From positions 670,153 through 734,152 of the forward strand of contig MU004231.1 in the NCBI GenBank assembly GCA_010405405.1: 64,000 nucleotides of DNA, read 5' to 3'. Origin of the DNA: Microthyrium microscopicum. Its lineage: Eukaryota. How positions within the stretch are numbered: position 1 is the stretch's first letter; each line of letters starts with the position of its first letter. The notes beneath the pieces were generated by a model. That model was given only the letters and a program-made list of their open reading frames with translations. It did no database searches and had not been told where the DNA came from. Position numbers and translations under genes: made by a program. Below, in pieces: positions 47,757-47,957 of the stretch.

Positions 47757-47957
47757 GGTGAGATGGCCGAGCGGTCCAAGGCGCTAGGTAAGAAACGCAC
47801 TAGATATTACTGTTTTCAACAGGGCACTAACTAACTCAGGTTAAGGTTCAGGTCTCTCCTCAACTTCCTAGTCATTTCATTATGGCGTGGGTTCGAATCC
47901 CACTCTCGTAAGCATTCTCCTGACTCTCATCAAGTATTTCACTAACAAATTAGATCA
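47757..47957 (+). tRNA. tRNA-Leu(AAG) in four exons (47757-47787, 47840-47846, 47866-47907, 47954-47957), with one canonical tRNA intron and two spliceosomal-type introns
   Basis: Joined exons give an 84-nt type II cloverleaf: GGTGAGATGGCCGAGCGGTCCAAGGCGCTAG|GTTAAGG|TCCTAGTCATTTCATTATGGCGTGGGTTCGAATCCCACTCTC|ATCA. Acceptor GGTGAGA/TCTCATC, anticodon stem CTAGG/CCTAG, loop TT-AAG-GT, T-arm GTGGG-TTCGAAT-CCCAC, A73. A and B boxes intact. Confidence 0.9.

Follow-up and report, generated by a model that had tools for sequence, protein, structure and literature searches.

Positions 47908-47953 (+ strand) of the window, by which we mean the whole 64-kb stretch of DNA analysed here, probably form a U2-type (GT-AG) spliceosomal intron that interrupts the acceptor stem in a nuclear tRNA-Leu(AAG) gene of an ascomycete-like fungus, an intron that would be removed before the tRNA matures, and this tRNA-Leu probably needs the mRNA splicing machinery to mature. 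In hand are the splicing signals, the exact restoration of the family consensus, extra genomic copies and purifying selection on comparable introns; the actual excision, the polymerase, the order of the steps and a working tRNA from this copy are what we infer from them. The gene, at 47757-47957 (+), is interrupted three times, by a 52-nt GT-AG insert at 30/31, a tRNA intron at 37/38 and a 46-nt GT-AG insert at 69/70, and is laid out as follows:

47757..47787, + strand: exon 1, with the acceptor 5′ strand GGTGAGA, the D arm with the A box, G26 and anticodon-stem nucleotides 27-30 (Rfam, ARAGORN)
47788..47839, + strand: first spliceosomal-type insert, 52 nt, at 30/31, GTAAGA ... CACTAACTAAC ... 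CAG
47840..47846, + strand: exon 2a, with G31, U32, U33, the anticodon AAG and G37; anticodon arm as in relatives such as L008
47847..47865, + strand: canonical tRNA intron at 37/38, 19 nt (ARAGORN i(39,19) once the first insert is removed)
47866..47907, + strand: exon 2b, with U38, the anticodon stem 3′ strand, a 15-nt variable arm at 47871-47885, the T arm and acceptor nucleotides 66-69 (TCTC)
47908..47953, + strand: second spliceosomal-type intron, 46 nt, between 69 and 70
47923..47932, + strand: intronic copy of the spliced junction, ACTCTCATCA (10/10 match)
47954..47957, + strand: last tRNA exon, 4 nt, with A70, U71, C72 and the discriminator A73
47958..47983, + strand: 3′ trailer (19 nt) and the T7 run at 47977-47983, Pol III terminator-like

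With the inserts removed, ARAGORN assigns the gene to class II tRNA-Leu (Leu(aag)), with a 7-bp acceptor stem, a long variable arm and A73. When all three interruptions are taken out, all 23 cloverleaf pairs are formed in the predicted fold at an energy of -26.7 kcal/mol, compared with -20.0 kcal/mol for the predicted cloverleaf with the unspliced 3′ end. The original prediction had also pointed to another exactly restoring GT-AG insert, and this is borne out: excision of 47788-47839 restores the anticodon stem and loop, yielding G26, a five-pair stem CTAGG/CCTAG and the loop UUAAGGU, like those of relatives, and ARAGORN with introns allowed then reports tRNA-Leu(aag) with a 19-nt intron in the canonical place, the boundary of which may slide by one T. 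The similarity of this first insert to the flanking exon is not significant (852/2000 shuffles). The Rfam match (RF00005, 47757-47911), which is the basis for exon 1, scores 29.2 bits, 0.2 bits above the threshold of 29, with a 77-nt insertion placed in the anticodon loop, and the score is marginal because of the inserts. By the general consensus, TGGCCGAGCGGT at 47764-75 is the A box and GGTTCGAATCC at 47890-900 the B box. ARAGORN in its default setting makes no call on the window and is also blind to L008, L019 and L011, which have ordinary introns, so its blank carries no meaning. The native ARAGORN reading, Leu(aag) with a single 73-nt intron in which GTAAGA of the insert is read as U33-AAG-A37, was rejected because it needs G32 and A37 and lacks nucleotide 26, and because it is the spliced register that matches the family.

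The signals of the 69/70 insert are those of a spliceosomal intron. The 5′ splice site GTAAGC at 47908-47913 fits the GTRNGN consensus, the branch sequence ACTAAC lies at 47941-47946 (branch A 47945), 8 nt before the intron end, and the 3′ site TAG at 47951-47953 provides the first AG after the branch, with none between 47946 and 47952. All of these elements, as well as the ATCA exon and the T7 run, lie where the original prediction had placed them, and the insert is 46 nt long. Without splicing, the 3′ strand reads TCTCGTA, with U3:G70 and G2:U71 pairs and the mismatch G1xA72, the defect that had been pointed out, and Rfam indeed flags pair 1-72 as non-standard. Excision instead gives TCTC joined to ATC and A73, which makes the predicted full set of seven pairs with GGTGAGA; one of these is a G2:U71 wobble, as is normal for the family. 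Furthermore, joining 47907 to 47954 produces ...CTCTC followed by ATCA, that is TCTCATCA, and since 101 of the 104 canonical relatives among the matches listed end in this sequence, the proposed joint is the exact family 3′ end, G2:U71 and A73 included. The T7 run, which had been said to lie beyond the last tRNA exon, does so at 47977-47983, the exon itself being 4 nt.

The intron also contains a copy of its own spliced junction. ACTCTCATCA matches all ten bases spanning the spliced joint, a score reached by 11/2000 shuffles, and in the predicted minimum-energy fold of the primary transcript GGTGAGA pairs with the intronic TCTCATC (47925-47931). This copy may be a relic of the origin of the intron, as templated filler from the 3′ end of a paralog, or a transient stand-in for the acceptor strand; in the latter role it may keep the precursor tRNA-like, with the 5′ splice site exposed, until splicing brings in the real strand. 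It could also support another fold or another 3′ end, at 47932.

The two GT-AG inserts were compared with the introns of mRNA genes in the same DNA. From a relaxed census of 120 candidates in the window, we picked as references 17 introns whose removal joins two open frames, each of 69 aa or more. Lengths of 46-63 nt are found in 15 of the 17, and all 17 begin with GTAAGT, GTAAGA, GTATGT, GTACGN or GTGAGT and have CTRAY 9-18 nt before the YAG end. Measured likewise, the two inserts in the tRNA gene have lengths of 52 and 46 nt, begin with GTAAGA and GTAAGC, have ACTAAC at 9 and 8 nt and end in CAG and TAG, respectively. Searching both strands of the 64-kb window (128 kb) for the strict motif GTAAG..CTAAC..YAG gives 10 occurrences, of which two are in the tRNA-Leu gene; several of the remaining ones join long open reading frames. 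Judged by these signals, both tRNA inserts are ordinary introns of the source genome at an extraordinary site, and the joint probability that two exactly restoring GT-AG inserts arose there by chance would be negligible.

Relatives of the gene were sought by scanning a metagenome collection with its first 20 nt, a sequence common to at least 120 loci, of which five of the 120 listed were too short to judge and 115 were long enough. Canonical tRNA-Leu genes account for 104 of the matches listed (anticodon AAG in 85, CAG in 18, other in 1), and by an approximate parse 93 of these 104 have an intron at 37/38. The other 11 loci among the matches listed comprise three unrelated sequences, one with only a long insert at the canonical place and seven with GT-AG inserts elsewhere:

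L036 = L113: insert at 28/29, 52 nt; two contigs with identical genes
L077 = L109: insert at 28/29, 52 nt; two contigs with identical genes
L101: insert at 58/59, 51 nt; its spliced form equals the mature sequence of the intron-free L108
L035: insert at 59/60, 55 nt
L029: insert at 22/23, 60 nt; gene truncated, T arm lacking

These seven inserts, among the matches listed, are 51-60 nt long, occupy four non-canonical sites and start with GTAAGT, GTGAGT, GTACGT or GTATGT; all seven have CTAAC, CTAAT or TTAAC 10-13 nt before YAG, and removal of each restores the consensus. With the two of the window, there are at least six sites in tRNA-Leu: 22/23, 28/29, 30/31, 58/59, 59/60 and 69/70. The metagenome scan for the T arm of the window gene joined to GTAAG gave 0 matches, and the exact 69/70 intron is thus a candidate seen in the source genome only. 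Two further loci in this collection have features of their own. In L102, a second tRNA-like gene lies about 30 nt behind tRNA-Leu and is not separated from it by a T run; the two may form a dicistronic tRNA pair. L089 consists of tandem units of about 98 nt, each of which starts in the manner of a tRNA 5′ half (…GATGGCCGAGCGGTCGAAGGCGC) and then has a GC-rich hairpin, and is not a member of this tRNA-Leu gene family.

Such genes would largely escape standard annotation. Canonical relatives score 46-57 bits with the Rfam tRNA model, L101 scores 24.4, below the threshold of 29, and at E values up to 1 there is no match for L035, L036, L077 or L029. Among the matches listed, three of the four distinct complete intron-bearing metagenome genes (L035, L036 and L077) are therefore without an Rfam tRNA match. 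Because the Rfam model misses intron-bearing genes, fungal tRNA gene counts and codon-adaptation analyses may miss them too. We also ran an intron-aware ARAGORN scan of the window and the loci, with a flank of 130 nt, a reach beyond which the 69/70 intron lies. Its 475 candidate excisions led to 10 junction-spanning calls, of which nine are known intron-bearing genes, several with wrong alternative isotype or anticodon labels, and the tenth, in L069, is dubious.

Copy number in the source genome was taken from the assembly graphs of four DNA runs from one sample that contain the whole stretch; these runs may be the source of the window and therefore support copy number only, not the sequence independently. 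The contigs 47200-47911 and 47935-48500 are single copy (depth 96 and 101 in run X1, 983 and 1044 in run X3), and the 83-nt unitig 47882-47964 that links them has a depth of 367 (X1) and 2446 (X3). The segment from the end of the variable arm through the T arm, the complete intron and ATCA to seven bases of the trailer is present in about 2.5-3.8 copies per genome, and the 5′ half of the gene and the first insert are single copy in the assembly graph. There, a second left context reads ...CGTAG TCAGAA before ATGGC; in the metagenome relatives, CGTAG is the 3′ strand of the anticodon stem and TCAGAAATGGC the variable arm. Because this second left context matches parts of tRNA-Leu, the same 69/70 intron is apparently carried by at least two tRNA-Leu genes. 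A second context also exists on the right, and part of the flank past the T run is common to it and the window gene. The arrangement suggests that the intron may have spread between tRNA-Leu genes by recombination or conversion, and the identical copies could be recent duplicates. There is no further copy of the gene within the 64-kb window. The second copy, over 47882-47995, comprises the T arm, the intron, ATCA, the trailer and part of the flank (TTTCCGAGCTAC), with a different variable arm and anticodon stem.

The metagenome genes allow selection on comparable introns to be examined. L113 and L109 carry inserts of equal length at the same site within flanks that cannot be aligned (about 50% identical columns). 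Their mature exons are identical at 80/80 columns and their splice signals at 15/15, compared with 18/38 for the other columns of the insert and 16/23 for the canonical intron; the difference between splice signals (15/15) and the rest of the intron (18/38) gives a Fisher p of 1.7e-4. This pattern of substitution shows purifying selection on comparable introns in the relatives. Since exons and splice signals were kept while all else was randomised, neither L113 nor L109 appears to have been dead since the insert arrived. Gene conversion from intact paralogs could preserve their exons, but it would not preserve the splice signals.

These comparisons bear directly on the possibility that the window gene, or all such copies, are dead or dying, carrying introns that are spliceosomal by origin only, with transcription or productive splicing lost and intron-free paralogs supplying the tRNA-Leu. 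The window gene does combine two such introns with an atypical 15-nt variable arm and an Rfam score at the very threshold (29.2 against 29), the metagenome scan found no conservation of its 69/70 intron beyond the genome (0 matches), and the metagenome example L029 is truncated and lacks a T arm. The exons nevertheless agree with the family in the acceptor and in the D, anticodon and T arms, with both junctions exact, and the same intron stands in at least two tRNA-Leu contexts. Moreover, the full conservation of exons and signals between L113 and L109 amid randomised sequence is not what neutral decay gives. We therefore regard a dead or dying copy as unlikely.

Transcription of a spliceosomal substrate by Pol III needs consideration, as the spliceosome does not normally act on Pol III transcripts, which are uncapped, and this counts against a spliceosomal intron in this tRNA. 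The T7 run at 47977-47983 is the first run of at least five T after the gene start, with none inside the 227-nt unit, although only 1/17 of the mRNA introns has a T run of at least five, so that the absence of such runs is by itself a weak argument for Pol III. An upstream TATA provides no test because it is present in only 25/116 regions (those of the 115 metagenome loci among the matches listed and of the window). The A and B boxes, the lack of T runs of at least five in the unit and the T7 run behind it together fit a Pol III gene. Alternatively, the tRNA might be cut from a spliced Pol II transcript, either a non-coding host RNA or the UTR of a neighbour, on which the spliceosome would work co-transcriptionally in its usual way; this would render the T7 run irrelevant. 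Spliceosomes normally act on Pol II transcripts, as stated in the sections of PMC12530127 used here, the gene lies between two + strand genes, and the 19 nt that separate it from the T run exceed the trailer length of most relatives, in which an oligo-T comes soon after TCTCATCA. Set against this are the intact A and B boxes in a unit that meets its first T run at T7, and the metagenome examples with the usual short trailer and oligo-T; an origin from Pol II transcripts thus seems quite improbable.

The proteins of the window suggest an ascomycete source, since for a patatin-like one the Atlas cluster that comes closest consists mostly of Ascomycota. With regard to the surroundings of the gene, the + strand open reading frames 48492-49265 and 49903-50301 have Cys-rich stretches that, we presume, resemble MYND zinc fingers. 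Run X5 is RNA-like, with uneven depth and adapter letters directly before the contig start at 48387. Its contigs stop at 47584 and restart at 48387, a gap around the tRNA gene that is no evidence on expression. These ends are likely the 3′ end of the transcript of the upstream gene and the 5′ end of that of the downstream MYND-finger gene, bracketing the tRNA gene. None of the listed X5 contigs covers 47585-47934, and an X5 contig across 47935-47982 belongs to the other copy. No spliced joint is listed among the contigs of the runs, which likewise says nothing about expression.

For a spliceosomal intron at 69/70, a maturation pathway can be proposed. All three introns would be present in a primary transcript some 225 nt long, for which Pol III is the most likely polymerase and which would end in the T7 run. 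The spliceosome would remove the two GT-AG introns, joining ...CTCTC to ATCA and the trailer, and would be presented with a 3′ exon made up of ATCA, 19 nt of trailer and the U tail. Removal of the 37/38 intron would fall to the tRNA endonuclease and ligase. Only after splicing could the 7-bp acceptor stem with A73 form, and spliceosomal splicing would precede processing by RNase P and RNase Z, the addition of CCA and leucylation. Until the joint exists, there is neither an acceptor stem nor a discriminator context for RNase Z, the CCA-adding enzyme and leucyl-tRNA synthetase, and from what these enzymes generally need they would presumably act later.

Removal of the 69/70 insert by the tRNA endonuclease, as a tRNA intron at a non-canonical position recognised through a bulge-helix-bulge-like fold, is extremely unlikely. 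Introns of that kind do occur in stems, acceptor stems included. A purpose-written script, however, requiring two 3-nt bulges with the cut sites and a 4-bp helix between them, found at best 1/4 central pairs and no outer helix at both junctions, which makes endonuclease removal in the archaeal manner unlikely, and such a mechanism leaves unexplained the occurrence of GTAAG, ACTAAC and YAG at the spacing of the genome's own introns. That the whole is a chance resemblance within a decayed, SINE-like tRNA-derived repeat is scarcely conceivable, since the part of the 3′ region that is repeated in the genome with about 45 nt of flank has only some 2-4 copies, which diverge inside the tRNA body at 47881, since SINE copies would share the tRNA-like head and the 5′ half here is single copy, and since the window holds no other copy and two exact restoring GT-AG inserts by chance are of negligible probability.

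Beyond the single gene, we consider it about evenly balanced whether these genes represent a hidden ascomycete class of spliceosome-dependent Pol III pre-tRNAs that carry up to two mRNA-type introns in addition to the usual tRNA intron, repeatedly gained, selected and spread among isoacceptor genes by recombination. In that case spliceosome capacity and the supply of a leucine tRNA would be coupled, and counts of such genes from standard tRNA annotation would be too low. An acceptor stem that depends on the spliceosome would link two intron pathways held apart in textbook and recent accounts.

Introns at several positions of one tRNA gene have precedents of another kind. In archaea, red algae (Cyanidioschyzon) and nucleomorphs, tRNA genes have introns at non-canonical positions that are defined by a bulge-helix-bulge fold. 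Like the inserts described here, these may be several per tRNA gene, lie in stems and be hidden from standard tRNA finders; unlike them, they are marked by that fold, which is absent at the 69/70 insert. The canonical eukaryotic tRNA introns at 37/38 are removed by the tRNA splicing endonuclease and ligase, according to the parts consulted of PMC12530127 and PMC10946435, which also describe the intron classes as unrelated, the spliceosomal ones being found in Pol II transcripts, a view restated in 2025 (PMC12530127). The 69/70 insert resembles the canonical introns in being an intervening sequence in a nuclear tRNA gene, which in the window gene has one of them too, and differs in its place at 69/70 in the acceptor stem (37/38 being taken by the 19-nt insert 47847-65), in its GT-AG ends and branch motif and in having no structural splicing motif.

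Ectopic spliceosomal introns are already known in non-coding RNA genes; the hosts named in the portions of a review that were available are U6, U2, U5, U1 and rRNA, with tRNA not among them there (PMC5855946). In the literature outside subscription journals and supplements, no report of spliceosomal introns in tRNA genes was found, and a prior report is possible; by the literature found, a tRNA host would be new, and if the reading is true tRNA would join the short list of non-coding hosts of spliceosomal introns. Lichen-forming ascomycetes have such introns in their nuclear rDNA (Bhattacharya 2000, as cited in the accessible part of PMC8527467), and a spliceosomal intron from a lichen is excised in yeast from rRNA transcribed by Pol I (PMC8527467). 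As far as these excerpts describe them, the lichen introns share with the tRNA inserts an ascomycete genome, an abundant RNA host not made by Pol II, short GT-AG sequences and a need for removal if the RNA is to function. The lichen host, in contrast, is a Pol I rRNA and not a tRNA of about 85 nt, and no dependence of end processing or charging is involved.

A close parallel is U6. In S. pombe, the intron of U6, itself made by Pol III, is removed by the spliceosome, and mRNA-type U6 introns are described from fungi, fission yeast among them (Tani & Ohshima 1989, 1991; Canzler 2016; all as given in the available sections of PMC5855946). From the same sections, the U6 introns have a canonical 5′ site, branch and 3′ site within a short structured Pol III-made non-coding RNA, number up to four per gene, use many independent insertion sites and are otherwise unconserved in sequence. 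U6 lies within the spliceosome's active site, so that its introns would have been gained there by reverse splicing in place, whereas a tRNA does not, as far as that account goes. The present observations bear on the question left open in the portion of the review cited, namely whether the landing site of new introns depends on RNA abundance, structure or nearness to the active site (PMC5855946). The tRNA-Leu introns follow the U6-type pattern, with canonical signals, an unconserved remainder and several independent sites in one RNA family.
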